A stretch of 64,000 nucleotides of DNA from Schmidtea nova (Eukaryota), in assembly GCA_044892505.1 (NCBI GenBank), contig CM097882.1, positions 145,080,001-145,144,000 on the forward strand. Reading direction: 5' to 3'. Under the pieces are notes generated by a model. The model saw only the letters and a program-made list of their open reading frames with translations. It made no database searches and was not told the origin of the DNA. Positions 1,616 to 59,910 of this stretch are shown here, one piece after another (position 1 is the first letter of the stretch; each line of letters starts with the position of its first letter). The translations under genes and the position numbers were made by a program.

Positions 1616-1620
<5 letters not shown>

Positions 1621-10527: not shown

Positions 10528-10822
10528 CTAAAAAGGAGGAAACGAAGATCAATCTGTACTATGATTCATTTACGGTCCTATATCCCCCTCTTACCCTTGA
10601 ATGTTATGGTATTAGTATTCACAAATCGGTATCTCCCCTTACTCTTTATCATACAGTCACCCATTTGTAAATCAACATCACACCTGCATCATTCGCTTTT
10701 TATTGAATTAGACACAAAAGTTCTTGGTATAACCATTTATTAATTTCATCACAAATCATGACACCTTCACGTCCGTTTTGCCATCTCCTTTAGAAAAATT
10801 CCAATAGGTCTTGGTTAAATTG

Positions 10823-11362
10823 TCAGTTGGCTCGTCCTCTCCCATCCGGTTGGTAGATTTCTGGGCACGGGTCCCAACATAACCGATCCTGGTATGCAAA
10901 GACTTCCCATAGTCTTTCGTTGTTTGGCCCCGACTGAGTGTTCATATTTATATTTCCGGGTGCATGGAAGTAGGATTGTCTTTTGTAAACATTGTCCGTG
11001 TAAACACATCGGGGTTGGTCCATTAGGATGTATCCGAGTTTGTGGAAGTCGGACCTTGTCATAGAATTGTCGCTCAATATCCACTTGGGTTGGCTTTGGG
11101 AGTTCTCAAGCTGTAGAAACCATCGGCTGCCGGCTCGATTCGGCGTCTTTGATGACATTGGCCACTCCGGATCGCCTTCCCATCGCACCCTTAGCTGGAA
11201 AGACCCTATCGTTCCTCGGGTGGCTGGGTCGACGTGGCCTCGCATCCAGGCTCTCAGGTGTCGCTCGGCCGACCACTTTATAGCACTGGGGATGAGTGTT
11301 GGATCTTCGAAACGCCATCTTCGGATAGCGCGACTTCGCTGTCGTTCTCTTTGGTATTTCAT
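10823..11362 (-). CDS. E3 ORF1, 179-aa Trp-rich protein of unknown function
   Basis: Intact ORF preceded by TTTTTAG|AGG-ATG; WEGDPEWP core aligns with GGPxWP of other copies. Confidence 0.7.
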   Translation of the reverse strand: MKYQRERQRSRAIRRWRFEDPTLIPSAIKWSAERHLRAWMRGHVDPATRGTIGSFQLRVRWEGDPEWPMSSKTPNRAGSRWFLQLENSQSQPKWILSDNSMTRSDFHKLGYILMDQPRCVYTDNVYKRQSYFHAPGNINMNTQSGPNNERLWEVFAYQDRLCWDPCPEIYQPDGRGRAN

Positions 11363-12352
11363 CCTCTAAAAAGATAGAGGCATTAGTTGAAGGATGAGGC
11401 CTTTCACACATCATTCCATCGTATGTCCACTGTTTCGTACACTCTGTCATCATGCTTCGTTCATGTCACATTATACTCTTTCACCCAAATCATACAAATT
11501 ATTTAAGATGTTTACCTGGTGCATTGATTTCATATTTGCTATAACTTTTCCGGTCAACATTTTGATCGTATGATCGCATTCAGTAGTATTTAATCATACC
11601 TACCCTACGCATTCATACTACTTTGTGTTTGCATAGTAATGTACTGGCTACTACTACTCAGATTTGATGTCACATTTATCATCAGTCACGCACGTTTCAC
11701 CGCAATCGATTAAATTCACATTCACATTCAACCAACATAAATCAATTTGTACCTCGTTATTACTCGGAAGGTATTATAGTCGGTTAGCTTCATACACGAC
11801 AATTTGTATTGTGGGGGGGGTTTAACTCTGGGTAGCTGATAGTGGGAACTCAACTCCCTAGATACTGCGCCAATCGAATCAAGTCTTTAGTGTTCTCATT
11901 TCACTTTCGTATTTATTATGTTGTTACTTGTCGCTTACAATGATCGAGTCTGACCTTAACTCTGGTCGCCTCGCATTTTTGGACCATCTGATTTTATCTC
12001 TCCTTCTAACCGCTACTCGAACAAGTCATGTGCACCCTTCCCCTTCCGAATTAATTAAAACACTTATGGTCTCGCCGCATCAGCACCTCACATGAAAATG
12101 TGTTGTGCCGAGAGGCCGAGAATCCCGTCAGATCGTTAGACCTTCGGGACAAACTTATAGATTTTAACATGAGGGTTTAATTAACATTCATAACAAGAAT
12201 ACAACTAACGTACCTTTTATTCGCAAATGTCTTCACGGTTAGAATGTTGTTCCAATTTAGACCACAAGTGATTCTAGTAAAATGACTCAACTCCAAAATG
12301 ACTGACTAAAATATTGACTGCAAAAATGACTGACTTTCTACTGATTTCACTG

Positions 12353-12390
12353 CAGTATTTATACTGAGTGACGTTGCTGGCCAGCCAATC
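12353..12390 (-). promoter_or_regulatory. E3 CCAAT/TATA promoter
   Basis: Minus strand GATTGG...CAGTATAAATACTG. Confidence 0.7.
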
Positions 12391-13109
12391 AGAATTGAGC
12401 ATGTGTGCATATATTGCCTATCTTTTATGCTTGATGATTTAATTACGTATTCAATTTGGTGAGTCATTATTTTGTTCGTTTTTTATTCTTTTATTACTCT
12501 TTTGTTATATTTTAGATTTACCATCAGTATCGGCCCACGCCTGTCAGCTTTTGTTCCAGCTGAGTAAGTTTTTTGTATTGTTATTTAATTTGCTTTTATT
12601 CTTTTATCAATTTTTCAGACTTTGATGTGCGCTGATCATATGCCGATTGGTAAGTTATTTTCTGCTCAATTTCTTGTATTATTTGTTGCTATTTTATTTA
12701 ATTTATTCTATGTTTTATTTTAGATCGCTTGGCCCAACATTCATATACAGGCAAAATTTATGTTGGAGACTGAATCCGGACTTCTACCACTCAACTGGGA
12801 TTCGGAAGGAAGACAGTGAGTATTCGCAAGACTGGATTTGCGATACCCAATGATACGAACACTACGAACTATTGATATTTTGTGCTCCTTTTATAATTGT
12901 TAAAATGTGTTCTTTAATTATAGTTTTGAACTAGTGTTTGTTGATATTGCGGGTTTGGATGATGGGATGGTGATGCGTAAATTAGATTATTTTTTTATTG
13001 GTGATGTTACTTAAAAGGTAATTGGAAGGGAGAATTAATACGTATTTAATTAAAGATGTATGAAATCACCAACATTTCGAACTATTAAGTAAATTCCCTA
13101 TGATTCTAG

Positions 13110-13420
13110 ATGGAAAACCTGCGACAAGTAGTAGATACAAGTAATGAACGTCTATAACAGAGGCGTATACGCCTATTAAAAGGAAAACTGAACCAACGAG
13201 AGGTAGAGGTCGACGAGCTACGGCAGACGTGGTTTAGTCCGACCGCAATGATAGATGCATTAAAAAGTAAGAATAGAGTACAATGAGCACTCGATGAACA
13301 GATTGTGGGTAAAGAGACGTCGCGAGCGGAGGGCTTTCGCAGCGCGCGTGAATCTTGAGGAGGATTTATTAAGCGGGTTAACAGAGAGACAATTGGTCAA
13401 TGTAATTAATAACAATATAT
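13110..13420 (+). pseudogene. E2 ORF2 remnant (internally deleted)
   Basis: TTCTAG|ATG; ELRQTWFSPTAM; NRLWVKRRRERRAFAARVNLEEDLLSGLTERQL, matching the E3 ORF2 C-terminus. Confidence 0.8.
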
Positions 13421-13429
13421 TTTTAGGCT

Positions 13430-13757
13430 GAATAAATGTATTAATTTATTTGTGGGGTTAATATTTTTATCGAATGATGCGAATGAATATGCGTATGGTG
13501 AACTAATGAACCAAATTAATAACTAAAAGGGGACATGAGTTAAAACTGCTGAGACCTTCTATCGGTCGAAATGAACCCGTAGATGATAGGGGAATAAATG
13601 TATTAATTTATTTGTGGGGTTAATATTTTTATCGAATGATGCGAATGAATATGCGTATGGTGAACTAATGAACCAAATTAATAACTAAAAGGGGACATGA
13701 GTTAAAACTGCTAAGAACTTCTATCGGTCGAAATGAACCCGTAGATGATAGGGGAAT
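13430..13757 (+). repeat. 162-bp direct tandem duplication including the anti-SL segment
   Basis: Two near-identical units start at 13430 and 13592. Confidence 0.95.
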
Positions 13758-13939
13758 ATTACCTACCTAGGTTGCTCACCTGCCCTGTTAGTCTACACCG
13801 CTCAGTACATTACCAACATTTAGCGCAGTTAGGGGCAAACCATGGATGTTGGGGCGTGGTATATTTTTTATGTTGGCCGGGTTACCCTAATCCGAATCTC
13901 TAATGAAACCCGTGTTTATCATCCAACCGCATTCCAACA
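13710..13939 (+). ncRNA. 3' structured RNA module A (E2, degenerate)
   Basis: CTTCTATCGG...GAACCC...GCTCACCTGCCC...ATTACCAAC, ~226 nt from the element end. Confidence 0.6.
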
Positions 13940-17568: not shown

Positions 17569-17810
17569 TGATGGGATTGTGGATGGGCTTGTAAAAACAT
17601 ATATGTTGTAAATGTCGTGTTCTAGGGATCCCTCACCCACAACCCTGCATAAACTGATCGTCGACACGCGTATGCCCTTGATTATTCCTTACTAGTCAAG
17701 TTGGTACTGCATACGGTGGTGGAAAAATGATGGGCAGGTGAGCTCTGTTACCAGAACTACTCCCAATTTATCTTCCCTCGGGTTCTTGTTGTCGATAGAA
17801 GGTCTTACGC
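17569..17810 (-). ncRNA. 3' structured RNA module A (E4)
   Basis: GCGTAAGACCTTCTATCGAC; GUUCUG-GUAA-CAGAGC; CGUAUGC/GCAUACG; AGUACCAA bulge. Confidence 0.72.
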
Positions 17811-18100
17811 ATTTAAATCCTATTTCTATTCGTCCCAATATCAATCTTTGATCTCTATGCCCCCATTTTCCGAAAACGCTTTCTCCTAACTTTCGTATAT
17901 TACTTTCGGTAGTTAATTTTATCTTGTAATTAATTAAATCGGTTTTTTTGCGGTGATTAACGTTTGTGCAACTTGTGAGGGAACTGGTTACTTCAATTTG
18001 TTTAATTTAGTAGGAATATTTTTTTACGAGGAGAGATAATATAAAATCAGCAACTCTTAAACTAGAACATATTTATTTTAGACACATCGATATCAACACG

Positions 18101-18677
18101 TTATCTCATAAAATCCAAGTCGATTTCGTCCATCAGTTCAAATTCTGTTAACGCGCTTAATCTATCGATCTGATTGGTCATACGCTGAGCGAATTCTAGG
18201 CGACGGCGCCTTTGTCTTGATCCTAATCGGTTCCTTCGCTGCTGTCCGACTGTGGTTACGGGAACTGTTGGTTCTGGTTGGCTGCTGCGAAGTGTGGGAG
18301 GAACTTCCATTATAGGGTTTGGAGCCATGATATTCTCGTCCTCCGTTCCAATTGCAATCTCCTGATATTTGCTTTAGGTCCATCGCTGAGCCGTAATTGG
18401 ACGGATTAACGCGCGCAGTTCGGTGTCTATATAGTTCTTCGTCACCGAATTTAGACAATTTCGCAGCTCTCTCTGGACTGCGTCGAGCTCCGTCCTAGTC
18501 TCAGTTAAAGCTTCCTGCATTCTATCCAGTTTTAACAGTTGGGTTTTCATTTGCTCTGGAGAAAACCATCGAGTTTTGAGTTTCTCATTTGCGACCGTGA
18601 GTCGCTTGATGCTGGTCTCTCATCTTCCGCTCTTGAACTTGGTTTGTAAATTTCTTTGAATTTTCGATAGAATTCAT
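18101..18677 (-). pseudogene. E4 ORF2
   Basis: TTTAG|ACCAA-ATG; KTRWFSPEQMKTQL...IRPIT...AIGTED...NRLGSRQRRRR; one frameshift and one stop. Confidence 0.8.
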
Positions 18678-19638
18678 TTGGTCTAAATAGTACAATACTT
18701 ATTGCCATGGTTAATTTACCGGTGGTTTATATTTTACTGAAATAACATAATAGCTATAAAGTGGACAAAGTAAACACCATTAATTCTAACACAAGTGGTG
18801 ATTAGATTTTGTGAATTTATTGAAACTTTATCTTCACCACTTCAAGAATTTTAGATGTTTAATTTATTGTGCTTAATTACTGACAAATGACTAAAAGAAC
18901 TCTCATTTACTAAGACATTTATTGAATTAAATTAGTCACTAGACATTTTTCCCCGTTAGGAAAATATAGTTCGGATTTGCAGATTCATTCTGAATGTCTT
19001 TTGACCCAACAAATTCATTCTCATGGCGCATCTCATGTCTATTCTGGGGTTGGTTGTCTCTGTGCTTAGGAAGATTTGAAAAAATAGCGCTCGCAGTGTA
19101 ACCCGTTAGTAAAATTCTCGTTACTTAATCTCCGTTGTCCCATGTGCAAAACCTCGAAACATTATAATATTTTAAATGTCAATAATTTTCCTACCGGGTG
19201 TGGAGCCTCTAAGCACCACGACGCGGACACACCCTGGGAACATGTAGCTCCCATTTGNNNNNNNNNNNNNNNNNNNNNNNNNNNNNNNNNNNNNNNNNNN
19301 NNNNNNNNNNNNNNNNNNNNNNNNNNNNNNNNNNNNNNNNNNNNNNNNNNNNNNNNNNNNNNNNNNNNNNNNNNNNNNNNNNNNNNNNNNNNNNNNNNTA
19401 CATATAATTAATATAACAAAATGGATGGCAAAAATCATGAATAACATAAAATAAAACCAAAGTACCTAATTTGTCTAGTTGCTTTATTAACTGCTTGATA
19501 GTATTGATTTAATTCGGTCTGTCAATTGATCGTCTAGTAATCAAAGTTCAAGTTGAAGTCACAATCAAAATTCAATCAGTTCAGTTAACTCAATCGATTC
19601 AATCACTTCAATTAATGCTATTTGATCTAAAGTCTGAT

Positions 19639-19678
19639 CAGTATTTATACTGATTTGTCTGGATCAGATTAACCAATC
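19639..19678 (-). promoter_or_regulatory. E4 CCAAT/TATA promoter
   Basis: Minus strand GATTGG...CAGTATAAATACTG. Confidence 0.7.
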
Positions 19679-20248
19679 CGGATTGACCGTCTCTACCGTA
19701 GGTCTCATTATTTATTTTATTTGCCTAATTAATTTTTTAGTTTTCAGATTCAATTCTCTTTAGGAGGTCCAGTTTTCCAATCAATTTTCCAATTACAAGT
19801 ACTTTTATTTTATTTAAATTATTAATATTCTACAATTTATTTGTTTTAGGTGCCTCTTATGACGGCTAATTTTACAATTTCTCTTGACCATTCTTTAAAA
19901 TTTTATCTCAAACTTATCTATAATTTATTTATTTATAATTTTTTTATAATTTTTTTTTTTTTTATAATTTCATTTATAGTTTCTACGTTTTTTTCTTTTT
20001 GTTTTAATTGTTATAAATTTAGTTTCCTTTTTACTCTGTTTAACTGGCCCAACATTTGTCTACATGTAATTATTCCAATATGAGCTTTATTCGAATATTT
20101 TATTAGTTAAAAAATCTTTCTATTTTCCGATTTGTTATGAAATACTCAAGTTAACTCAACTCAGAACAAAACAATTATTTCATATTAAATTTCGTGATTT
20201 CCTTCACTGAGTCAGATGACACCCACTAAAAACTCCAATTCAGTTAGC

Positions 20249-20560: not shown

Positions 20561-22164
20561 TATGCCATCTCTCACACCCTCTCTTTACTATCTCCGCATC
20601 ACAACATTACCCTTGGCTCTATATTAACCATGCTACCCTTCCTATTGGCCAAAACTGCCTTAAATAACTTTTACCCATAATGACCCTTAGTATGTAAATT
20701 AATCAGAAGAAATCAAGTACTTAAGTCGCAGGCAACAATACCTCGTGGTAATTCCTTCGTTAAAAAATTGAACGGTATTATTCATCAATCAACCGATTTT
20801 ATATTTCTATCGCTTTGGACCAATTCCAAACACCCCGTTGGTATTTCCCTTTCCAAATATTTTCATTAAACCTGGAGCCTTCCGGCTCCATATCTTATAA
20901 TACATCACGCTGTCGGTTTCGTCGAAAATGTTTCCTAAATTTCTCACTAGAACCCCCTATGCGCAACCCTCCTTCAGATACCATCGAAAAATCATTTTTG
21001 TTATAGATTTTAATAACAAATTTGCAATTTAACTTCTCTAAAACATAGTCACCAGTTCGTGGAGCTAAGAAGCCCCACGCAGATGGATCGCACCCTTGCA
21101 GCGTGAGCTACAGAGGACACTATACTAAAACATAAATATGAAAAATAAAAACGCTAATTATCCACTTAACTTATATATTTATGTGCAAATAAAAATATCA
21201 TGAAAGCACCAAAATTAAAATTAGACAAATGTCGGGCTGGCGAAATCGGAAAATAAATTTTGTTTAAATTTATCAAAAATTAAATATATACAAGAGGGAA
21301 CAAGTTTAAAAACGCACGATAAAGTATTACACAGTAAAACAACGCAAAAGAAAATAAAAATAGTATAGTACAATAGTAGACACACGAACCGCATTCCATA
21401 AGTCGGGCGAGATAGGGTTGAAACGATAGAAAAGATGCATCTCGAAAGAGAACCCATAATTTGAGAGCAGGTCACATTTACACATGAAGAACCGCACGAA
21501 AATTGAATGGGGAAGATTATCACTGTATAAAATAACGAAAAGCATGATCAAAGAATAAAATTGAAATCAGGATAAAGAAAATAATTTATTAAAAATTATA
21601 GGAAAAATCCCCATTGAAAAATCGGAAAATAACAGAGATAGAAAAAAATAGAATTAAATTAAATTGATTGTTTTAATCAATCAATTAATGTACAAAAACA
21701 GTGGACACACACACCATTTAACGAAATTAAAAACAAATATTTTAGAAATAAAAAAATCAAATCATAAAATTAAAATTACAAAAAAAATAAATAATCATTT
21801 ATTAAAACTAATAAATTAAGTTTAATCGTTAAAATAATTATTTACATAATATCATTCGTGGGTGCAAGTTGATTTGATATAAATAGACGCTGAGAGTCAC
21901 AGTTAGTTGGTAGTTAGCATAAAATTTTCAGTATTTCATTTTTGCCAGCCAGTCGCGTGAGTGAGTAGGTTTGTTTTGTTATATTTTTAATGATAATTGG
22001 TAATGCATATTGAATTTAGCTACGATAATAGTTTTATTGTTAGCTTGTTGAATAAGAAGTGTTATAAATTACAATGGTATCTAATAAATATTTAGAATTG
22101 AAATTTTATGTTTTGGCTATTTGCGAGTAAACCCTCATAATAACCGGAGTAAAATTCATAAAGG

Positions 22165-22285
22165 CGATTCCCGACGGTCTAACAACACGACGGGTGCTAA
22201 GTGGCCTCTCGTCCTGACTTCTTCCGGGGACTTAAGCAATGCGGCGTACCAGCGCTAAATTTGGGCAGGAGAAAAGAGGATTGCA
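22165..22285 (+). other. Conserved motif C (E6)
   Basis: Homologous to 7915-8030. Confidence 0.55.
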
Positions 22286-22455
22286 AAGAGTATTCATAGT
22301 TTTGGTGAATTATTTTTGGATGAGAAAAGTAGATAAAAACATTTTTTGAATTGGTATATAATGTTTTTGAGGATGAATAAAGCTAGAGATTTAAAAGCAG
22401 GTGGTAATAGATAGTTAAGAGGTAATCATGCGATAGGACCGAAAAGTAAGCAGAT

Positions 22456-22695
22456 GCGTAAGTCTTTCTATCGGCAGCAAGAACCCGAAAGAGAGAATTT
22501 AGTGAGGAGTAGTTTCGGCAACGGAGCTCACCTGCTCACTCGATTCTCACCACCGTGTACAGTACCAACATAGTTACTTGAGGAATAACTATGGGTACAC
22601 GTGTGTGGTAGATTGATATTTATGTTGCGTTATGGGTTGTATTAACCCCTAAAAATCGTTAATAGTTTTTAAAACAACACCCATATCACTCAACA
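22456..22695 (+). ncRNA. 3' structured RNA module A (E6)
   Basis: GTAAGTCTTTCTATCGGC; GUUUCG-GCAA-CGGAGC; CGUGUAC/GUACACG; CAUAGUUA/UAACUAUG. Confidence 0.72.
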
Positions 22696-38115: not shown

Positions 38116-38224
38116 GACCTTGACAACCAATCAACAATTAGTGGAAATCGACACGGAAATTTTCTCTCTGATCAATAAACGGAAAGCCTCGAAAAACTCA
38201 TCGGTCAGGTACTTCAAGAGACAG

Positions 38225-38328
38225 TGAATAAGGTCCAGGCGTCGTAGACAGAAATGAACTTTCTCCAACCAATTAGCTGCTCAATTAGATGCGTTGAACA
38301 CGTTGTCGGATTTTGAATTACTGCCTTA
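38225..38328 (+). pseudogene. ORF2 C-terminal remnant
   Basis: IRSRRRRQK*TFSNQLAAQLDALNTLSDFELLP, matching the ORF2 tails of E4 and E7. Confidence 0.65.
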
Positions 38329-38464
38329 AGTCACCCCATTTTGATAAATTTAAACTTCATGTTTTAGTTAATAAACTGTTGTGTCTACTTTATGTCTTTG
38401 CAAAGCGTCGTCCAACATTGATTATCGTGCTAGGAAAGTGACTAAAGTTTAGAGACGGCATACA

Positions 38465-38683
38465 GCCGGACCTTCTATCGGTCTATGAACTCAAGTGGAT
38501 GTAAGTAGGGAGTAGTCACAAATTCTGCAGCACACCTGCCTGCTCGACTTACACCGATATGTATATTACCAACGCAGAAAAACTATGGATTTTCGCAGGT
38601 ACATAGTCGTGACAAATATATTATTGAGGTGTTCACCATCAACCCCTAGTAAAAGTCGAGTAAATACCAGACAAACACCAACA
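38465..38683 (+). ncRNA. 3' module A (degenerate) and element end CACCAACA
   Basis: GGACCTTCTATCGGT...GGGAGTAG...CACACCTGCC...ATTACCAAC, 217 nt from a CA terminus. Confidence 0.55.
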
Positions 38684-41391: not shown

Positions 41392-42699
41392 GTAAGCACA
41401 TTTTTATTATTTGGTGCGGGGTCATTGAAAAGTCATGCCCCTTCAATTACCCCGTACCCAGTAATATTTTATTTTGTCCTTTGAATTTTAGTGTATTGTT
41501 ATTATTTCATTATTAATTTTATATGAAAATATCAAACTTTATATGTTATATGATTCGTTTTTATCCTTATTTTATTTATTATTTAAATTTTACTTTACTG
41601 TCACAAATTCCCATATTTAATAACAACTCTATTTCATGCAATATTTATTGTATAATGATAAAAAATAATTTTCTTTTGCTTCCATATCCTCTAACATCTG
41701 TTCTGGCCTCGTGCCGTACGGATGGAAGTAGCCTGAGCGGATCGCTGGTTCGATTTGTAATCGATCAGCCCATTTTTCCGACTTTAGGTGATACGCCCAA
41801 ACATCCATGATCACTTCATCCCAACTGGGGAACAGTAGCTTGGCCAAGGGCAAGATTTTTAAATTAATGATCAGCAATTTATATTAATGTATTTTATCCG
41901 AATTATATTTTATACCATATAGTGTAATTAAAAACTGATACTGCATGTTGTGTATATGAAAGTTGGAAATTTTTATTTATTATTTGTATTTATTATTATT
42001 TTTATTTATTATTTGTATTGAGTATGGTACTGTGCATACCGGAACCCCCCCTTTACACTATTTAGGCGCNNNNNNNNNNNNNNNNNNNNNNNNNNNNNNN
42101 NNNNNNNNNNNNNNNNNNNNNNNNNNNNNNNNNNNNNNNNNNNNNNNNNNNNNNNNNNNNNNNNNNNNNNNNNNNNNNNNNNNNNNNNNNNNNNNNNNNN
42201 NNNNNNNNNNNNNNNNNNNNNNNNNNNNNNNNNNNNNNNNNNNNNNNNNNNNNNNNNNNNNNNNNNNNNNNNNNNTTTGAATTCATCAGCTTACTATATT
42301 AATAAACTATAGTAAGCTATGAAATCAGAAATTGAAAAATTGATTAAAAATGTTGGGCCCGCCAAATCACCTAAAATCACAATAATAGAACAAAAATATA
42401 AAATAATAAGGAAATAATAAACATAAAAATGACAATAAAAACAAATTAAAAATAAGAATAAAATGACAAATAATATTTGATAAGTTTCCAGCAAAAGGAA
42501 ATTTTGAAAATAAACCGGTAAATAACAGCAAAAGGGGGCAAGAAATAAGAAAAAATAGAATTAAATAAACTAATAGTACAAATAATTAATTAATTACTCG
42601 AAAAATCAGGACCACCCAGCGAGAAACCGGAAAAGGAAACAAAATAATGTTTAGGTTTAAATAAAATAATAAAAATACTTTGATGGACGGTCTGATCCT

Positions 42700-42736
42700 G
42701 ATTGGTCAATCCGACCAGCCGGATCAGTATAAATAC
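42700..42736 (+). promoter_or_regulatory. E7 CCAAT/TATA promoter
   Basis: GATTGGTCAAT...CAGTATAAATAC. Confidence 0.7.
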
Positions 42737-43847
42737 CGATCCGAAAATCACTAAGTTAGAATAATTTTTACTCGAAAGAGGTTTACTGAGAGAAATTTTA
42801 CTCAAAAGAATTTTACTCACAAGCATATATTTTACGTACAAGAATTTATTCACTTCGAAATTTCAAATCATTCAATACAGGATAAAGGTACGAAGGAATA
42901 AAGTTTTTATTTATTGTCATCTTTAAATGATTATTAATGTACCTATGATTTCACCATTTATTTAATTATAATTTTATGTTTAATTTTACTTCATTTGATT
43001 TTATCTTAATTTAACCATGCATATAGTTATACTTCCTAGGCTGCTCACGCGACGACGGAGTCCGAGTCGTCGTTGTGGGGCCTCACGGTCTCACATAGCG
43101 GTTCAACCTTTTTATTCTTTTTATTTTTTTTTGCGATTGTAATTTGAGAACTGTCAAAGATGCGAATTTATTAAGAACGATTTTCAGTTATTTTTCACAC
43201 TTAGTTATTTGATAAAAATTTTCATAGTGAATTGTAAAAAATTCGACGATTTTCTGACGATAATTAGAATGTCACCTATTCGGTTGCACAGAGGGCGTAG
43301 TGTGGGGCGCAGCGGAAAAGGCGGAAAGAGCTGCCAGAGGGTATGCAGCACCAAATGAAAGTCAGGTATCAGCCTCCAAAGTATTAAGATTATAAGGAAA
43401 AAATTTGAGACTCTGGAGCATAAGCGAGACGATACAAATTAGAGAAATATGCATTCAAATCGATCAAATTTACAATTTCATGAAGGGTCAAAGTACGACT
43501 CGATAATATCGACTTGGATAATGCAGACGAAATACGTCACAACATTCCTATTAAATAAATTATCTAAATTCTAAAAATACTCTTAGACCGATCGCCGTAC
43601 ATGGCGCGGAATTTCCTAATTTATAGTCCGATCGCTGTATATAGCGCGGAGAATTTTCATCAATTTTTATTCTTCCTGAACGCTTTATCTAGCGTAGGGC
43701 CACGTAACTATAAAGACGTAATCCAACCGTGGTATATCGCGGCGAAGACAAATCAATTTAATCATATTTTAAACCATTTTTTGTTGTCATACGCAGTATC
43801 AGTAAATCTTCCGACAAATTTTCTCGGTTAAATCATATTTTTCTAAA

Positions 43848-44348
43848 ATGTTTGACAAACTAATACAGATGTCGGCAGCCGATGTTATGGAAAGGTTGAC
43901 CCAAATTCGGAATTCGGAACAAGGGAGCACGGGAAGTGGAACGGCCTCCCAACTCAAGGAGCTGCCCGCACCGATATTGCGGACCATTAACGCCCAAGTA
44001 TACAAGTGGCGGCACGGGTTTGGTCGAAAATGCCCGTTATCCATATGGGCTGGAGGAAAAGATCGAGTATTCTACCGGGGAGGACCGAATTGGCCAATTT
44101 CACAAAAGTCTTATTCGAAGAAATTTGGGCGGATAGTCATTGTGATAAACGACGCAGAGGGACGACCGAGTCAAATAATCTATTGGGGACACATCCCTCG
44201 CCGAGAGTTATGCAAATTAGGACTGCAAGCGTTCCTGCCGCGGAAACCGTTTGGCAAGGAATGTCAGGATGGGCAACCCCCATTTTCTTGGGCTCGACTT
44301 CGACAGATGCCAATCAACCACGAACTACACAGCCTATTTCGGCGATAA
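43848..44348 (+). CDS. E7 ORF1, 166-aa protein of unknown function
   Basis: Open ATG ORF; KWRHGFG...YRGGPNWP...KFGRIVIVI...IIYWGHIP. Confidence 0.7.
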   Translation: MFDKLIQMSAADVMERLTQIRNSEQGSTGSGTASQLKELPAPILRTINAQVYKWRHGFGRKCPLSIWAGGKDRVFYRGGPNWPISQKSYSKKFGRIVIVINDAEGRPSQIIYWGHIPRRELCKLGLQAFLPRKPFGKECQDGQPPFSWARLRQMPINHELHSLFRR

Positions 44349-44528
44349 ACTATGTGACAATGATATTTCTAAATAAAAATCTTATTGTTTATCAGTGGTC
44401 TTTGTTTTTAAATTTTTGTGTTATTAAGTCTATCATGTTCTTGACATAATAATCATTCGCTCGTATTGTAATTATAAACATGTTTTAACCATAAAGCGAC
44501 AAAGCAGTTAATTTAAATCCATTACAGA

Positions 44529-45125
44529 ATGAATACAGATCTTGCACAAAGAGAGCTGGAAAAGATGTGGCGAATCTGGAGAGCCCAGGACAAGGAATTG
44601 GGTCTCCTCAAGGAACAACTATCCAAGGCCGAGGCGCAAGTCACCTATTTGCGCAAAAGCTGGTTCGCTCCTGCTCGGATGAAGGAGCAGATTGGTAAAA
44701 CCGAGCGTGCGCAGCGAACAGCGGAAGATTACAAAATGGAATAGGAAGCTACCAAAATCGAGCTTCGGAAATGCCTACATTCTGTGACAGCCTCCTATAT
44801 CGAACGGGAACTGCGGGATCAAATCCGACCGGTCACATATCAAGAATGGACGGCGGAAAAGAAGAGCGTAAACTCGATCGGCACGGACGTCGACGATCTC
44901 GTTGGAATTTGTAACGAGCCGGTTCCATCAATAAATCCAGCCACCCAAACTGCCAATGCTCACCAGAAACGTAAGCGCATAGGGCAGAAAAGGCGACGGC
45001 AAAGAAAGCTGTTCGCTCAACGATTGCAGAACCAAGTTGACGGCTTGCACAAATTGACAGAGGAGGAACTATTAGGAGAAATATTTCCCCCAGCCGAAGT
45101 TTTTACTGATTTAATTGAAAAATAA
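44529..45125 (+). pseudogene. E7 ORF2 with a single TAG (likely TGG) at 44742
   Basis: TTACAG|A-ATG; YLRKSWFAPARMKEQI; NSIGTDV; ATQT; KRRRQRK. Confidence 0.85.
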
Positions 45126-45357
45126 ATGAAATCTCGTATTAATTGTCATTTTTGTTGTTTACCTAAAATAGTTTAGTTAATAGAATAAACAATAATATCT
45201 CTGAAATAAAAAGAATTATAAAATTATAATACAAAATATATAAAAAAGGTAACTAAATAATTAAATGAGCACTATGTCAGAAAACTTCATGTAAAATGAG
45301 TGATGTCAAAGACAAATTTTCTAAAGTTTATCGTGGATTACAGAGCAGATGATTAGA

Positions 45358-45593
45358 GCGTAAGTCCTTCTAACGGCAGCAATGAACCCGTAAACATAAA
45401 TGGGGAGTAGTACTAGCGATAGTGCTCACCTGCCCATCATTGTTTAACCACCCTGCGCATCACCAACTTGATTATATAGGGAAATAGTCGAGGGCGCTTG
45501 AGTGTATAATTGCAATTTTATGTATGATCATGGATGAGGGATCCCTAGTCATTGTTAGAACATTTTTCATCTAACCCCTCCATGAACCCAGCA
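45358..45593 (+). ncRNA. 3' structured RNA module A (E7)
   Basis: GTAAGTCCTTCTAACGGC; GUACUA-GCGA-UAGUGC; CUUGAUUA/UAGUCGAG. Confidence 0.72.
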
Positions 45594-46396
45594 AAAATAA
45601 TAGAAGCTAACAACAATTTTTAACAAGATTTTGAAAACATAAAACTGAAGAACTAACAAAATAAAGATTTTTTCCACACTATTGAGAATATTGGATTTGT
45701 TTACCTAATATCAAAGGATAATTCAGCTGATCAATCAAGAAGAGCAAAATTATCAAATCAAAGGATAATTGTGTATATCGAATTTATTCCCCCCCGCCTA
45801 ATCTTGCTACAAACCCAATCCCTCCGGAAGTGAGCGATTACCAAATCTCACACACTCGAAGATTGTGTATATCGAATTGTATTCCCCCCGCCTAATCTTG
45901 CTACAAACCCAATCCCTCCGGAAGCGAGCGATTACCAAATTAACACCAACTAAAGTAACTTTTGTAAAGTTGAGTAGATTAAAAGTTTATTATTCTAACA
46001 GTTTTAATTGTTAATAATTATTTGATCTTATTATTTGTTTACTTATTTATTCTCACGCACTTGAACATTACAAAGCATACACCCCGAGTGTCCCCACAAT
46101 AATCGGGCTGACTCTCTCGGGCGCTTACATTTCTCCCTGTACATATTTATAACATCTGACTATAAAAAACTTTCGAGACAAGTAAATTAGCACATTAGAA
46201 CATTACAACTGGTGTCAGAAGTCAACACAACACACACACTCACCGTTTTTTTCAAGCGTTAACGCCTGCAGCATACCTATCATAGAGGTATAAGGATTAA
46301 CGTCACTTTTAGCCGAACACAGTAGGCTATATCCTTTAGTCAAGCTCATTTTTTTCACATAAAAAACAACATAACAAACAACAACAATACAATTAA

Positions 46397-49300
46397 ATGG
46401 CATCGAATCCAGTAAACCCAAACACTTCACAAACACCAATGGACAAAGAAAATGCACAATCCCAACACCAAAACAACAATTATTATTACAACCCCGAAAA
46501 CACACACACCATAAATTCGGTAATTAACCCGAAACCCAACTTACCAAACTACTTCACAGATGAAAATGGCACCCCACAAAAATGGCTGGAATTTGCCAAA
46601 TTGACACTAACCCTTTCAGGTATAAAATCCACAAAAACCCTATGCTCCAATATTATAGCCGCACTCCCCAGCAACAAACTAAATGAAATAGCGGATCAGA
46701 TCGAAGAAATTTCTAAGGATGACGACCCCTTTAACAAACTGTGTAACATCCTTACGAACAAAAATAAAATAAACTGGAGACAAATGCTAGAGTCATGCCT
46801 CAATAACACGCAACTAGGCGACAACAAACCAACAGATTTTCTCCGACAATTTAAGCAAAAATTGGAATACCTCCAACCCAACATTACAAATTCAGGCTCC
46901 AACGAATTGGCGAAAGAATTTTTCATGCGAGCAATGCCACCAGAAATCAGGAGGATTTTGGCAGCCAGCAACAACGCTGACGTTGAAACGCTTGCCGATA
47001 TAGCGGATAAAATCAACGAGGAAATTTATCCGACTATATGCAGCACCCAAAACCACAACAAAAACAAAGCGAACTATAATAACCCTTCATACAACAAAAA
47101 TAACGAACAAAACGACAACATGAACAAGCTATTAAACACACTAATCGGCAAATTCGACGAAATCATAGTCGAAAACAGACAGATAAAAACAGAACTAGCC
47201 GAAATAAAAGAACTTTGTAATAAACAAACCTTCAACTCAACACAATCATACGACAATTACAACAGATACAACTACAACAGAGACCTACCATCAGACGGTC
47301 AAAACAGACAATGCTACAATAAACCTCCAGAATAAAACAGACAAAACTACAGCCGCAGTCAATCACCAAACAACAATTACAGAAACCGGTCGAACTCCCC
47401 AAATCGAGGCAACAATTACCGAAACAGAAGCCCAGAAAGAGATCCAAGAAATAATTATATAAACAAAAACCTGTGCTATTTCCACAACAAATTCGGTGAA
47501 AAAGCATTTAAATGCACACAACCCTGCGAATTCAATAAAACAGAGCAGGGAAACCAATAAGGTCACCAATGATAGCACCCACATCAGGTGACAAAAACAA
47601 CACATTTTGGGTGCACAGCAATAACATAGATTTTTTAATAGACACCGGCTCGGTGATCTCACTACTGCCCCATTCTATGTATAAAAGTGCCAACAAAACA
47701 GAAAAACTATTAACAGCAGCTAACGGCACAAACATAAAAACTTTCGGGCAACAAAAAATAAATTTAAACATAAACAAAAAGAACATTCACAATAGCTGAG
47801 GTCCAACAAGCGATAATAGGAGCAGATTTCCTAACAAATTACAACCTCCTAGTGGATTGTAAAAACAAACAAATAATAGAAAATAATACTAATACTACAA
47901 CACCACAGCACGACACAAACAACGGAGGAAAACCAAAAATAGACATCGGTGTTATCCAAACGGGCCCACCTAACAATAAACAAAAACAAAAACTGAATCA
48001 CGACCCAGAAATAAATAAACTACTGGGAAAATTCGAAAAACTCACCGAACCAGTAACCTTTGACAAAAACACGGATCACTCCACCGAACACGCAATCATA
48101 ACAAACGGAAACCCAGTGCATGCAAAGGTGAGACAACTAGATCCACAAAAAACAAAAATTACGAACGAAATTTTCAAGGAGTTACTAGAAAACAAAATAG
48201 TAACTCACTCGAACTCTGATTGGTCTTCAGCACTCATGCTCAAACAAAAGGCAAACGGGGAATGGAGAGCTTGTGGCGACTACCGAATGCTCAACAAAAT
48301 CACTGAACCAGGCAACTACCCACTGCCTATCATCAGAGACATAATAAACAGATTAAAAGGAGCAAAACTCTTTTCGAAAATCGATCTACAGAAGGCTTAC
48401 CACCAAATACCCATCAGGAACGAGGACATTAAAAAAACAGCAATCGTAACACCAATTGGCATGTTCGAGTACAACAGAATGCCATTTGGTTTGCGAAACG
48501 CAGCTGCAACATTTCAACGATTTATGGACAAGACGCTGAAAAATAACCAGAACACAATAGCTTATTTGGACGACATCCTCATAGCAAGCCCAAACAAAAC
48601 TACTCACTTAAAAGACATTGAAAAGGTATTTGAAACGCTGAACTCCGCAAATCTCAAAATAAACATTCAAAAATGCGAATTTTTGAAAAAAGAGATTAAT
48701 TTTCTGGGACACACACTGGACGAAAAAGGCACGAAGCCAATAGACAAGAAAATAAGCACGATACAATAGTTCAAATTACCGAACACAAACAGAGAGTTAA
48801 GACGATTCTTAGGGATGGTAAACTTTTACCATGCGTACATCCCTAACTGCAGTGAACTGTTAGCTCCATTAAACGACCTGATCAAAACAAGAAGAAATAT
48901 TAAAATAAACTGGACCGAACAAACTACCAAACAGTTCGAAAAAGCAAAAACAAGCTTATCCCAAGCAACATTACTCGGATATCCAAATCCAGAACTAGAC
49001 TATAACCTAGCAACAGACTGCTCTGGATATGCAATGAGCGCAACCTTATATCAAGATAACGAATACGGCAAACAACCAATCGGGTTTTTCTCTAAAAAAC
49101 TAAAGACACATCAAACTCGCTACTCAACTTTTGACCGAGAATTACTCGCGATACATGAAGCCATCAAACACTTCCAACACTTACTGGAAGCAAGAAACTT
49201 CAAAATATATACGGACCACAAACCGTTAACAAACGCGATACAAATGAAAAACCCATCACCACGACAAATAAGACAATTAAATTATATATCACAATTTAAT

Positions 49301-50627
49301 TGCACAATCAATTATGTTGCTGGCGCCGCAAATATCGCAGCAGATACCCTGTCAAGAATAGAAACAGACATAAACGCACTTGAATTTGGCGAACTATTCG
49401 AAATCGAAAAAATTAAAAACAAACAATCAGAAACTTTAAAAGAACTTCCTCTAAAACACAGCCTGAAATTAGAAAAAATCAATGAACTTTGGTACGATGT
49501 CAGCAATGAAAACACACCAAGAATACTCTTACCAAAAGAGTTTAGGAAATTGTGTATTTCGAAAATACATGACATCAGCCATCCAGGGAACAAAGCCACC
49601 TTTGAAATAATCCACAACAGATACATATGGCCAAATATGAGAAAGGAAATCAAAGGTTTCGTAAAAACATGCAAAAAGTGCCAAATCAACAAAATATCAA
49701 AGAAACCAACAACACAAAAAGTAAACTTTCCAAGCAGTCAAACTTTCGAGATGATTCACATTGACATAGTAGGACCGTTACCACCAAACAACGGGTACAA
49801 CTACCTACTCACAATCATCGACAGGAAAACTAACTGGTTCGAAATTATCCCACTAAAAGAAATATCCGCTCAGAACATATGTAACAAGATTGAGCTAAAT
49901 TGGATAGCTCGCTACGTCAACCAAAAGTATTGATAACAGACCAAGGGAGAAGTTCGAATCAGAATTATTCAGTACTCTGTGCAATAAATACAACATAAAA
50001 AGAAACCGCACAACCGCTTACAACCCTCAAGCAAACGGAAAAATCGAGAGATTGCACAGAACACTAAAGGAAAGTATCCGAACTAAAGCAGACGACAGAA
50101 ATTGGCTAAGTCAACTCCCGACAATCTTACTGGGACTAAGGAACACGCCAAACTCAACCGACAACGAAAGCCCAGCATACAAAGTATTCGGCAGAGAATC
50201 GAATCTCCCAACAATTAAAAACAATACAACTGAAAATGCAGAAACCAACAAACAAGCAACCAACACAAACAACGAAAGAGTAGAAAAGAAATTAAAAGGA
50301 ATCCATAAAAAGAGAGCGAACTCTGAAATGGACGTAAAAGTAGTTCTAACAACAGACTACGTATTAATCAAAAAGCCCTTCACCAAAGGTTTCGAACCAA
50401 AATACGAAGGCCCTTTCAGATTGCTTGAAATTAACAAAAATGTTGCAACAATAATAAAAGACAACACCAAAATAAGAATCAATCTTAGAAGAATTAAACC
50501 ATACCACAACAACCAAAACACTCCAAACAACCCCACAAAAGAAAAAGCCCCGACACAAACAAAAACACAAACAAAACATAAACACATCACATTCAACTCC
50601 AAAAACTCGATAAAACTGTTCGACTAG
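46397..50627 (+). pseudogene. gag-pol with stops and frameshifts
   Basis: Gag CHCC motif CYFHNKFGEKAFKCTHPC (CsRn1 hallmark); LIDTGSVIS; YLDDILI; TDCS...DRELLA...TDHKPL; HHCC integrase with IHIDIVG...NGKIER. Confidence 0.93.
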
Positions 50628-51061
50628 GACACAATAATCACACCCCTTTACAAAAAACGCTATAGCGAATGCCTCAAATAAAAATATACAAGCAAAACAC
50701 AGGCACAACATAGTAATTTGTACAGATTTTTATTTCTTTTGAAGATAGGTAATTTATGGTGTTAAATTGTAATCAAACAAACAAAACATAACAAAAAAAA
50801 CAAAACAAAACAAAAAAAAAGGTTTTATGTTAGTGTTATTATAAAAAAATGTAAACTTGGTGTGATTCCGTGAATGTTGTTTTCCTGTTTTTCGTCCAAA
50901 TGTTAACCTCCGGTTTTAAAGGGGGAAGTTGTGTTGTGTATATGAAAGTTGGAAATTTTTATTTATTATTTGTATTTATTATTTGTATTGAGTATGGTAC
51001 TGTGCATACCGGAACCCCCCCCCCCTTTACATTATTTAGGCGCTTTATGTTTGGGGTTATG

Positions 51062-51099
<38 letters not shown>

Positions 51100-51654
51100 C
51101 ATTATCATAATTATCTTTTTTCACCTTTGATCTTTTTTTATTATTATTATCAATAATTCTCATAATGACTATAGATCAAATTTTTTTTTATAAACAATAA
51201 CACAATATTTCGGCACANNNNNNNNNNNNNNNNNNNNNNNNNNNNNNNNNNNNNNNNNNNNNNNNNNNNNNNNNNNNNNNNNNNNNNNNNNNNNNNNNNN
51301 NNNNNNNNNNNNNNNNNNNNNNNNNNNNNNNNNNNNNNNNNNNNNNNNNNNNNNNNNNNNNNNTTTGAATTCATCAGCTTACTATATTAATAAACTATAG
51401 TAAGCTATGAAATCAGAAATTGAAAAATTGATTAGAAATAATAGAAGCTAACAACAATTTTTAACAAGATTTTGAAAACATAAAACTGAAGAACTAACAA
51501 AATAAAGATTTTTTCCACACTATTGAGAATATTGGATTTGTTTACCTCATATCAAAGGATAATTCAGCTGATCAATCAAGAAGAGCAAAATTATCAAATC
51601 AAAGGATAATTGTGTATATCGAATTTATTCCCCCCCCCCCGCCTAATCTTGCTA

Positions 51655-53675
51655 CACCGTGTTTCATTGGATATGGCGACCTATAATACAGGTGAATGAT
51701 ATACATCACGAGTTATTATTAGTCATTAATTCAAAATTTGTTGGAATTAGCCATTTTAAAATGGCTTTCAGGTAATTTTTGTAATTAGGATAACTTTTAA
51801 GTCTTTTATTTTGATCGCATAATGTTATGAGATCACTATAGAAGCTTTAAAAGGTTATCTTTATTCATCAATTCTATTTTTATTTAATTTTTAAATAATT
51901 TGTAGAAAATGTTTATGATATTATGGAATTATTAACATCAAAGGTAAGTAAAAATTCAATTCGAACTAATATTTATTTGATAAACACATTAATCTCCAAA
52001 TATTTCAATTTTCCGAAAACATTTAGAAAAAAATCGGCGAACATGTAAGAAAAAGTTTTCCAAATCTTTATAATCATCTTTGTTTAATTCGTCTTCAAGA
52101 GCTGTTTTCACCAAACAAAATCTGTCTTGGAAAGACATTGTGGAGAAGCCATTTGATCTTGATATTGTCTTCCTTAAACTGCATTTTATTTTGCTAAATA
52201 AACTTTCGATTGGGTTGAGGAAAGGGCTGTATGGTGGTAAATTTACAACGAAATTGTTTTCTGATATTACTCCACCATGTATTGAGGCATTATCATGAAT
52301 TAAGTGGTATCCTGTACCATCTAATTTTGAAGTTAATTCTTGAATGAAAAGTTGGTAACTTTCTTTTTTGAAAGATCCAACTATAAATTTGTGATGTACT
52401 GGTCCTTTTAAGCCAATTGCAAGAACCAGTGACATATTTGAGCCTCGGTTAGTGGGTACAATTTGATAAAGTCTTTCACCTTTCTTCTTCCTTCCCAGAT
52501 TTTGGCCTGACCATGAATTAAATCCACATTCGTCAATGTAAATTAATTTTTTGTCTTCCCAAGCTTCGTCTAAAAAGCGAGTTACATACTGTAACCTTAA
52601 CTCGAGTACGCGGTCTGAATTTCGAGCAGCTACACATGGCCTTATTTTTTTTAATGTAATTAGGTTCCTGTTCAAAAACCTAAAAATTGTCGCTCTTGAT
52701 ACTTGGCAATTAAATTCATTGAGGAATTTTCTCATTTCCTCTAAGGTTGCACCAACATTGTTTTCTACAAAATCTAACAACTTAATCCCTGTTTCTTCTG
52801 AAATTCGAGGCTTGCTACCACCTCTTGTGCTTTCTGGTAGGTGGCCATATTTTTCAAATTTATAAATTATTTTTCTTATAGAATTTTTTGTTAGGCCAAG
52901 TAAGCTTCCCAAATGGAAGTAATCTTGTTTATTTTCCTTTGCGTTTATGATTCTTGCTTTGTCGATATCTGAAATCCTATAAAAATCAAATAACTTTTTA
53001 AATATTTATTATTTCATCTTACGATTTGCGAACATTTTTTCGGATATCAAATGAAATGTGGTTGGACGATGTCCCTGGAATATCTGAAAGGCTAAGCCCA
53101 TAATAAATATTTTAATAAATAAAAAAGGTGATACCATTTTCCTAATTCATCTTCACGAAATGCCATTGTTTCCACTGAATTTTCTGAAAAACTGGGAAAA
53201 TATAAAAATTTTATGACTTAATTTACATTACTTACGATGATATTTCATCTTTTTCACGAAATGGTATTGTTTCCAGTGAATTGTCTGAAAAACTGGGAAA
53301 ATATAAATTTTTCAATACTTAAATTATAACACTTACGATGATATTTCATCATTTTCGCGGAAACTCAGTGTAGATCCATCAGATCCAATTATCGAAATTT
53401 TATTTTCCATATTTATTTTCAATTTTTCTGCTGATAAAAATTATATATGGTAGCCATATTGAATAAAACAAGACACACCCATAAAAGTTACCATCTGTTT
53501 TTTTCTATGTTTTGTGTTTGTGTGTAATTATTTTTTTTTCTTACCTTTTGTCTACGACATAATAAATCGCCATTTTCAGTAAAACAGCAATGAATTAGGT
53601 ACAGGTAGGTGTGTATTTTTCTATAATATAAGCTATTTAATTATTATAGGTCGCCATATCCAGTGAAACCTGGTG
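51655..53675 (-). mobile_element. Tc1/IS630-like DNA transposon inserted in the 3' LTR
   Basis: ~33-bp TIRs CACC..GTTTCA.TGGATATGGCGACCTATAAT; TA TSD. Confidence 0.93.
51989..53083 (-). CDS. Tc1/IS630-like transposase with intron(s); main exon 52976-51989, upstream exon 53083-53023
   Basis: IYIDECGFN, LIHDNASIH, PYSPFLNPIE. A 46-nt GT-AG intron (52977-53022) joins in frame ...RKNVRKS|ISDIDKARII. The start codon is not resolved. Confidence 0.8.
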
Positions 53676-55679
53676 TACAAACCCAATCCCTCCGGAAGTG
53701 AGCGATTACCAAATCTCACACACTCGAAGATTGTGTATATCGAATTGTATCCCCCCGCCTAATCTTGCTACAAACCCAATCCCTCCGGAAGCGAGCGATT
53801 ACCAAATTAACACCAACTAAAGTAACTTTTGTAAAGTTGAGTAGATTAAAAGTTTATTATTCTAACAGTTTTAATTGTTAATAATTATTTGATCTTATTA
53901 TTTGTTTACTTATTTATTCTCACGCACTAGAACATTACAAAGCATACACCCCGAGTGTCCCCACAATAATCGGGCTGACTCTCTCGGGCGCTTACATTTC
54001 TCCCTGTACATATTTATAACATCTGACTATAAAAAACTTTCGAGACAAGTAAATTAGCACATTAGAACATTACACTGCAGAAAAAACACTAACGTTAATA
54101 CATCCATCAATGTCTTTTCCATCATAAAATTTATCAGTACAAAAATATCCAACTCGTTATTCGCCTTCACTCTCGCAACAATTGTCACCTTATCAGAATC
54201 TACAAGTCGAATAAAAGCCAATATGAAAAAGAGAATCGTTCAAAATAATGCTCAAAACCGATAAAAATAATTACCACGAAACGAAATATGAGAACAAGTA
54301 TTGATTTATTTGAATTAAACCTCATTAAATGCATAGTTATCTAAATAATTTACTCCAGTGAACCTTGGTTTCGGGAGTCTGAAGTTCTCGAGTGAAGTGA
54401 CTCAAAAATTCGCGCGCACTTTGTTCGGGAAATTCACGCTCGAACGAAACCAAAATTCACCTTACTTGATGTCGAAAACTACTATGAATTAGAGAGTCGA
54501 TTTTAAATGATAACCGAACGAAGATACAAAAGCTGAAATCAAAAATTTATTGTGAAAATTACTTTAGATCAGCAGATTCAAATCCTTGTGAAAAATTACT
54601 GATCAAGAATTTTATTATAAAAACATTTGTATGACAGTGGATAAATTTTACGTTATTTATTTATTCGAATTATTTAGGAAAATTTATGAATTGAAAATTT
54701 TATTTATTGTGTAAACTTCATGGAAATTGCAAATTTTAATTATAAAACTAAAATTTACTTTTATAGGAATTATATCATGGAAAAATTTAAAGTGCAATTG
54801 TTTTTTTTATTCTCCTAAAAAAGTAAAAAATTATAAATTGAGTCCTTATATTAGCTTGAAAAATTAAAAAAAATTTTTATTAAAATATAAAAGGTATAAA
54901 TTGAAAAATTTATTATTACTTTATAAAATTCAAATTTTAAAAATTTAACTAAGAAGATTTATGGATACCAGAATTATTATTTTATTGTAAAATTTATTTT
55001 ATTTATGTAATTTATTAGTTTATAAACTGACCCCCACGATATCACAAAAGATATAATACACCCATACTTGCAAAGCAATACATCCATACCAATACCACAT
55101 GCAACATTTATATAAATACAATACCCACACACTACCACATTTCAATCAATACGATCTCCTATACTAGACACTATGATAAACAACACACGCACTCACCAAC
55201 ATATACAACGTGATTTCATCTAACAGTATCCACTAGCATCGTACATCCAGACAATATCCACTAGTATTCATACAATCACATCCCCTATTTAAATTCGCAT
55301 ATTGTAGTAGTATCATTTCCAACATACAATCACATACCGTCACATACAACCTCCCACATTCATACTGTTACGACAGCAAAACTCATAATAACCCATGAAT
55401 GTATTTACTATCACTACTCCTTCCATCATTCATGAAACTCCTATATCCATACCAGTTACATCAAATCATCTCACTCAACCCATACGTATAGCACAGTGCC
55501 CTCAACGTCCTAAATAAACTCACACCAATCTCACACCAGTTATAAAGGGTTATACTTTCACATGAATCATCTCATCTCATTTACACATCACCTATATTCA
55601 GTATACTACCCTCAGGAATCCTTCTCAGAACTTTTTCAGTCATAGTTATCGATAAATTTTCGTCCGTAACAGACCCTAC

Positions 55680-59842: not shown

Positions 59843-59845
<3 letters not shown>

Positions 59846-59903: not shown

Positions 59904-59910
<7 letters not shown>

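Follow-up and report, generated by a model that had tools for sequence, protein, structure and literature searches.

The reading frame at 44529..45125 (+), termed ORF2, very probably represents a selected protein-coding gene that resides in an LTR. The units bearing it are solo LTRs of a gypsy-like retrotransposon family. In our best reading, the LTR gene ORF2 encodes an accessory protein of a retrotransposon that is gypsy-like and possibly Burro-like, and its position downstream of the promoter is unusual. All coordinates refer to the window, the whole 64-kb stretch of DNA analysed here, which is animal sequence rich in AT and contains an actin gene as well as gypsy, hAT and Tc1/mariner elements.

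ORF2 copies, their motifs and selection

An earlier note, made from the sequence alone, described ORF2 as a family with copies at seven places (4182, 10527, 13110, 18677, 20560, 38225 and 44529). A profile search of the 64-kb window bore this out, all seven places encoding related sequence. The profile was built from four copies (44529, 4182, 10527 and 18677) and recovered those left out, 20560 at E 1e-11, 13110 at E 8e-11 and 2e-10 in two frames, and 38225 at E 8e-8, while the best match elsewhere reached E 0.65, setting aside the frame-shifted tail of 4182. The note had further taken 44529-45125 as an open frame. This was not the case, since the 198 codons are interrupted by an in-frame stop at codon 72 (44742-44744). 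None of the seven copies in the window is intact: 4182 has a frame shift near the C-terminus, 10527 a stop at codon 35, 18677 one frameshift and one stop, and only fragments remain of 13110, 20560 and 38225. At codon 72 of copy 44529, contigs from four public runs, all of one study and possibly close to the source sample, carry a different sequence (18-25 contigs per run), so that the stop is either private to this copy or an assembly error. An alternative genetic code was rejected as an explanation because the actin and transposase frames read normally and the other copies differ at this codon.

The protein layout proposed in the note was compared across the copies. The N-terminal heptad coiled coil (residues 5-44, 44541..44660, +) exceeded shuffled sequences in 44529 (a/d contrast p 0.0005) and in two other copies (p 0.012 and 0.005), the segments having been picked by eye, and it coincides with a predicted helix at residues 2-44 of pLDDT 86-96. 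The WFxP motif that follows (44661..44672, +) breaks the helix in the structure model and is present in 5/5 copies keeping that region. Two other words were confirmed in part. IRPIT reads IRP[IV]T in four of five copies but IRAST in 10527, and the linker word is [IV]GT[DE] in 4/5 copies, whereas the TQTD form occurs in just one. In 44529 this word is SIGTD (44874..44888, +), a possible non-canonical LC8 motif within a linker predicted to be disordered (pLDDT <50 at residues 111-141). The Arg/Lys-rich stretch is recognisable in 7/7 copies, though a stop or frameshift breaks some. In 44529 it takes the form of the arginine-rich motif KRKRIGQKRRRQRK (44967..45008, +), predicted to be helical, and 10 of its 14 residues are basic, compared to 7-9 in five other copies and 5 in the frameshifted 20560. 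The C-terminal amphipathic acidic helix (45012..45086, +) is NES-like in some copies. When NES class definitions were applied to the ORF2 tails, a class-1b-like pattern was found at one aligned place in 4/7 tails and was absent from 44529; the background is high, as 131 of 354 control 30-mers (37%) match some NES class. The AlphaFold model of ORF2 contains long helices at residues 2-44, 48-70, 74-98 and 101-114, the disordered linker at 111-141 and the Arg motif on a helix at 137-174, and displays no compact fold (pTM 0.28).

The earlier note had proposed to judge the family by dN/dS among its copies, and the divergence proved strongly purifying with pN/pS far below 1. For 44529 and 4182, a gap-free DNA-level block gave pN 0.23 and pS 0.87 in frame (pN/pS 0.26) and a single stop; the five other frames contained 7-10 stops each. 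By codon alignment, pN/pS was 0.30 (95% 0.22-0.40). All six pairs among four copies gave 0.30-0.67 at pN 0.17-0.52, counts that leave out the three fragmentary copies (13110, 20560 and 38225). Synonymous sites are at or near saturation and the true dN/dS is therefore lower than pN/pS, by an amount that is not reliably correctable. We regard the neutral decay of a fortuitous frame, of a remnant of Gag or of a host domain that was captured as a highly improbable account of ORF2. Stops or frameshifts in every one of the seven copies are what such decay would produce, but it does not account for saturated synonymous sites at so limited a pN or for the outcome of the frame control, and no Pfam match reaching the cut-off and no CCHC or capsid domain speaks for a Gag or host origin. 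Neutral decay is thus refuted by the frame control as the history of the lineages; single solo copies do decay once inserted.

The note had also pointed to a known Gag or host domain as an alternative identity. No Pfam match for ORF2 reached the cut-off, and Gag was rejected on this ground, on the lack of CCHC or capsid domains and on the lack of pol behind ORF2. A word-seeded search of ~5.8 billion proteins yielded 0/187 candidates for copy 44529, and 0/7,991 candidates represented longer or fused forms, the latter being weak evidence. The ORF2 profile found no match among 1.84 billion representatives, and viral contigs (0/74), metagenomes (0/116) and PDB sequences were equally blank. As eukaryotic repeat ORFs are poorly covered by such collections, these blanks do not show absence. 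At the level of folds, none was found in BFVD at E up to 0.001 or in the PDB with Foldseek, and VIA-align of the ORF2 model returned generic coiled coils only (best Z 6.4). The best ESM Atlas values, 0.82 for ORF2 copy 4182 and 0.87 for ORF1, the second gene of the LTR, are leads only; the ORF1 model was too poor for a fold search (pLDDT 43.5). No curated Rev/Rex/Rec family was among the Pfam matches at E up to 10 (four copies) or the PDB sequences. Delta antigen, to which the note had drawn a loose parallel in size and layout, has no support either: neither Pfam nor the PDB sequences gave a match with E up to 10, Rfam showed no ribozyme, and the context is an LTR.

Solo LTRs carrying ORF1 and ORF2

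Copy 44529 lies in the solo LTR E7 (42351..45593, +), a unit of 3,243 bp that runs from TGTTGGG to CCCAGCA, carries ORF1 and ORF2 and is flanked by an AAAA target-site duplication (left copy 42347..42350, +; right copy 45594-45597). E7 was received by the 5' LTR of a Ty3/gypsy element in which Pfam recognises Gag, RT, RNase H and integrase frames (41946..54074, +). The corresponding empty site is found with one mismatch near 51430, in the 3' LTR of this host element. The host LTR pair is identical at 99.5% over 400 nt and at 97.7% over 221 nt, indicating that the E7 insertion is young.

Further units lie elsewhere in the window. E1 (1616..5153, +; duplication ATAT/ATTT, one mismatch) carries ORF2 copy 4182. 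E2 (5774..13939, +; TATA/TATA), which measures ~5.0 kb without its insert, carries ORF1 at 9140 and the ORF2 remnant 13110, and the insert is E3 (9567..12739, -; TGAA/TGAA) with ORF1 at 11362 and ORF2 at 10527. E4 (17569..20054, -; CAAA/CAAA) carries ORF2 copy 18677 and is nested in E5, between the ORF2 (20560) and the U5 module of the latter. E6 (21230..22695, +; CAAA/CAAA) is a 1,466-bp derivative that lacks ORFs and keeps the R hairpin and the U5 module, and the E8 remnant (38138..38683, +) retains an ORF2 C-terminus (38225) together with the U5 module. All six units mapped end to end have TG...CA termini, and the 4-bp target duplication is perfect in five and has one mismatch in the sixth (0.0064 for random 4-mers), while 5-bp duplications fail in 6/6. 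ORF-bearing units are 2.5-5.0 kb long.

Further support for an LTR came from contigs of the public runs. Loose ends with primer-site-like sequence behind 45598 were present in 3/4 runs (2-4 contigs each, one study), and the stretch past the E7-type 3' end in these contigs has the TGG start of a primer-binding site, which we take to fit tRNA-Pro. Between 2,263 and 3,820 contig pieces per run align to E7 at 80% likeness; this depth is not a copy number, and such thousands of pieces indicate an abundant LTR family. Within the 64-kb window, neither paired LTRs nor an internal region or a polypurine tract was seen for the ORF2-bearing family. Ginger-type DNA transposons make a 4-bp duplication as well. 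This candidate was rejected because the inverted ends span only ~5-7 bp and a primer-like site follows, and a Terminon/Penelope element was rejected for want of a hammerhead.

A second LTR subfamily (62090-62662(-), 60172-60959(+) and 36476-38113) shares the U5 module and carries a different coil-plus-Arg protein of 190 aa in the ORF2 slot. This protein is also under purifying selection (pN/pS 0.19), has no detectable similarity to ORF2 (hhalign 0.3%) and yielded 0/246 candidates in the word-seeded search of ~5.8 billion proteins. No target duplication fixes the boundaries of this subfamily.

Family units (1616-22800, 36476-38683 and 59637-63070) cover ~41% of the window. Insertion of one unit into another, or into an LTR of a different kind, is recurrent (E3 in E2, E4 and E6 in E5, E7 in the gypsy LTR) and suggests self-targeting of the family. 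Among the repeats lies an intact-looking cytoplasmic actin gene (15083-16261(-)) with one short intron after the RPRHQ codons. Ordinary transposons occupy 31365-35278(-), 38730-40420, 51655-53675, 25600-28100, 29300-30100 and 55690-58600; they comprise a second gypsy element, which has 112-bp LTRs, as well as hAT and Tc1/mariner elements, and one Tc1/mariner element is inserted in the 3' LTR of the host gypsy element.

Candidate expression signals and structured RNA within the LTR

Both genes of E7 are framed by candidate signals for transcription and processing. The putative promoter, an inverted CCAAT box with a TATA box (42700..42734, +), recurs in 4/6 units at a distance of 349-376 nt from the start of the LTR. 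A putative splice donor AG/GTACG lies at 42886..42892 (+); AG/GTAC is located 153-187 nt after the TATA box in 3/6 units, the only ones with a clear donor motif. The LTR donor G/GTACG is identical to the SL donor. ORF1 (43869..44348, +) encodes an orphan of 159 aa (W...GGPxWP) without a Pfam match, with homologues at 9140, 11362 and 3576-3967. It stands behind a CAG acceptor, its start in E7 being taken as the second in-frame ATG since the first lacks a YAG. In ORF2, a CAG acceptor lies 1 nt before the ATG. A YAG 0-5 nt before the ATG is found at all seven surviving starts of the ORF2 slot (five ORF2, two second-subfamily) and in 3/3 ORF1 genes, compared to 272 of the 2,134 ATGs in the window. 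An AATAAA (45121..45126, +), presumably the poly(A) signal, overlaps the ORF2 stop. The hexamer is found within -2..+27 nt of the ORF2 end in 6/7 copies (background 7%, or 18% in AT-rich context) and near the stop in 0/2 second-subfamily copies. Judged by these signals, spliced expression of the LTR genes appears likely. If the TATA and AATAAA signals are used, R would be ~2.4 kb long and hold both genes, and U5 would comprise the last 450 nt.

On the opposite strand, a putative splice-acceptor-like site (T-rich tract and TAG; 42371..42380, -) lies close to the 5' end of the LTR. It occupies the corresponding position in 4/6 units (E7, E1, E2 and E3), and the U3 of E3 (12540-12725, +) contains short antisense intron-like stretches. 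These motifs suggest a bidirectional promoter that might feed antisense genes upstream of the 3' LTR. Further LTR genes or exons may be represented by stretches of higher GC content and an antisense frame of 117 codons in E2, E1 and E7 (6555-6908(-), 3170-3480 and 43290-43420).

The LTR also carries conserved RNA structure. The U5 module (45360..45593, +), called 'module A' in the earlier note, consists of a conserved word and two covarying hairpins and was aligned in 12 full copies; 2 partial ones were found. Two-sided changes occur in 21 of the 31 pairs of the hairpins, a number reached by 0/500 shuffles and above all six slid controls, although the same 8 sequences served both to derive the structure and to test its covariation. 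A second conserved hairpin (43040..43099, +), in the predicted R region, was aligned in 6 units and has two-sided changes in 6/12 predicted pairs. It is situated ~200-310 nt after the TATA box in units where both could be placed. E6 has lost the ORFs and retains both structures, as expected for cis targets of trans-acting proteins. Among five Rfam matches at E up to 1 in the window there was no ribozyme or cis element, nor does the window contain a tRNA gene. Four metagenome loci matching the U5 pattern were dismissed as chance because none was matched by the U5-module profile.

Two short words within these structures deserve mention. The branch-point-like CU(A/C)AC recurs in the R hairpin (43044), in the first U5 word (45370) and in a U5 bulge (45425), where a GUAGU strand faces it. 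The word might serve as a protein-binding site present several times or mimic the U2/branch site. In three copies, the word that opens U5 can pair at 9/10 positions with the beginning of the Schmidtea SL1 RNA as printed. This is a lead only, since the printed sequence may differ from the leader of the host and may lack the first bases of the leader. Sites of 9/10 complementarity lie at 4925-4934(-), 17515-17524(+) and 17798-17807(+), with a weaker one at 45361-45370. The SL1 10-mer has seven one-mismatch matches where 2.2 are expected, all of them in family units and three in U5, but the copies do not count as independent and the excess is gone once two mismatches are allowed. The SL1 RNA sequence was taken from Fig. 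S6 of PMC10899757.

A possible Rev-like regulator and its known counterparts

We wondered what an LTR might gain from a gene of this kind. The earlier note had suggested an oligomeric protein that binds RNA, possibly the 3' module, and a protein of this kind with the module as its target remains our best guess. The position of gene and module inside a solo LTR points to accessory regulators of the Rev, Rex or CERV type rather than to delta antigen. More specifically, we tentatively favour ORF2 as a Rev/Rex-like regulator of the element's own RNA, giving this slightly less than an even chance. The reading is favoured because ORF2 combines a coil with an Arg-rich motif (ARM) and adjoins a selected RNA structure, and because a dissimilar protein of the same layout occupies the same slot in the second subfamily. 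A coil with a basic patch is nevertheless common and fits other roles too.

Under the Rev/Rex-like reading, transcripts would start after the TATA box, be spliced to ORF1 or ORF2 and end at AATAAA. Short LTR-confined messages would thus be the default, and a solo LTR could make them too. For a 5' LTR this would pose a problem: by default it would yield short spliced messages that stop behind ORF2, but an unspliced RNA reading through the LTR would be required for replication. Retroviruses must suppress 5'-LTR polyadenylation (PMC3694450). The ORF2 protein would oligomerise through its coiled coil and its Arg-rich helix would bind structured LTR RNA, either the U5 module or the R hairpin. The balance would thereby shift towards genomic RNA that is unspliced and reads through, either because its export is promoted or because splicing or polyadenylation in the 5' LTR is suppressed. 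Rev-like proteins combine an ARM, an oligomerising coil and a C-terminal NES and have targets in env or the LTR, and the beta- and deltaretroviral response elements covered in that source lie near or in U3, not U5 (PMC5568270, in part). The gypsy element Cer1 needs its own spliced orphan protein CERV for export of its genomic RNA, according to the pertinent section of PMC10309623. Taken further, the LTR might be a two-gene cassette in which an independently evolved Rev-like protein encoded in the 2.4-kb R binds U5 and switches from LTR-confined messages to read-through genomic RNA. Solo LTRs would then be scattered trans-acting genes, and the SL-antisense-like U5 word may engage the host trans-splicing machinery. 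We consider this scheme in its entirety to be unlikely.

The linker word offers a different view. ORF2 might be an adaptor directed at the host: LC8 would bind its linker word and dimerise the coil, and the protein would transport RNPs of the element or interfere with silencing by the host. In LC8 clients, Q is favoured at position 0, residues of medium size at -1 and +1, and D, E or P at +2 (PMC6607443). The claim of an LC8 motif stands as regards the flanks, since positions -1 (I/V/T), +1 (T) and +2 (D/E) are kept in 5/5 copies within an otherwise variable disordered linker beside the coil and match these preferences. At the anchor it is weaker than the note implied, because Q at 0, the most conserved LC8 residue, is present in only one of five copies and G in the other four, although anchors with G at 0 (IGC, VGE) are predicted for KANK1 in the part of PMC12803091 that deals with them. 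The second-subfamily protein lacks such a word, and an LC8 adaptor would leave the Arg-rich helix unexplained. We hold LC8 binding to be doubtful as the main role but plausible as a side function, and it can coexist with a Rev-like role.

Tat, too, makes use of an Arg-rich motif. If ORF2 were an activator of the Tat/Tas type, acting on the R hairpin or the promoter to raise transcription from the LTR or its elongation, it would find a conserved hairpin ~200-310 nt behind the TATA box. However, the R hairpin is located downstream of the putative donor and would be intronic, far from the start site, unlike TAR, and ORF2 shows no Cys-rich or known activation domain. We consider an activator unlikely, slightly more so than an adaptor. 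Alternatively, ORF2 could encode a chaperone or coat for RNA with a structural function, comparable to L1 ORF1p or delta antigen, with the unit moving as a small RNA element that is non-autonomous instead of having arisen as a solo LTR. This would sit well with a window in which every unit is unpaired, several are nested and E7 is young. Yet primer-site-like sequence follows the 3' end in other copies, an LTR mechanism cannot copy a unit that lacks terminal repeats, no Rfam ribozyme was found and neither delta antigen nor ORF1p was matched. We judge such an element improbable. A Rev/Rex-like regulator remains the role that we tentatively prefer.

Compared with known systems, ORF2 resembles Rev, Rex, Rec and Rem as outlined in the consulted part of PMC5568270 in being small and in combining a coiled coil with an Arg-rich helix, both predicted, ahead of a hydrophobic helix. 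A structured RNA in the LTR is a further common feature, and spliced expression a probable one (PMC5568270, same part). There are also differences: there is no sequence similarity, the NES is a candidate pattern, the gene lies wholly inside the LTR downstream of the TATA box, the candidate RNA belongs to U5 or R and not to env or U3, and the element is gypsy-like and not a vertebrate retrovirus. The CERV protein of C. elegans Cer1 is likewise an orphan of a Ty3/gypsy element, expressed from a spliced mRNA and predicted to have a leucine zipper (PMC10309623, in part), and the general searches detected no similarity between CERV and ORF2. Hepatitis delta antigen has an N-terminal coil and a basic region at a size similar to ORF2. 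In contrast to delta antigen, ORF2 belongs to integrated units with LTR ends and target duplications and without ribozymes.

LTRs are normally non-coding, with sag and nef as known exceptions upstream of the promoter. Coding or putative coding sequence inside the LTR is shared by MMTV sag, lentiviral nef and the HML LTR ORFs (PMC2664473, relevant passages). According to the same passages, sag and nef occupy the 5'-most third of the LTR ahead of the promoter, unlike ORF2, and the HML ORFs are mostly antisense, without ATG and of unproven function (PMC2664473). E7 differs in having two sense ORFs with ATG and acceptors between TATA and AATAAA, and purifying selection. Among planarian elements, Burro/GYPSM1 are abundant and rich in accessory ORFs in AT-rich genomes, as is the case here (PMC6431247, section 7). 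With an internal region of up to 25 kb and a total of >30 kb as given in that section, multi-kb LTRs are implied for Burro; those described here measure 2.5-5.0 kb, and the Burro LTR size is deduced from the PMC6431247 totals. The giant internal region that marks Burro/GYPSM1 comprises Gag, env-like, PR, RT, RH, IN and accessory domains. Section 7 of PMC6431247 describes no ORFs in Burro LTRs, nor are they mentioned in the parts of PMC8532177 and PMC11410931 that were covered, and our window contains no internal region for comparison. Selected, spliced genes inside gypsy or Burro LTRs were not found in the literature surveyed; the original Burro paper, its supplement and Repbase may show them.

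If selected, spliced genes indeed lie between the TATA box and the poly(A) signal, every solo LTR becomes a potential free-standing gene. Such genes would sharpen the question of read-through at the element's 5' poly(A) site. If ORF2 is Rev-like, a further invertebrate LTR retrotransposon would have evolved its own switch of RNA fate, beside Cer1 with its CERV, and here the protein and its target would lie side by side.
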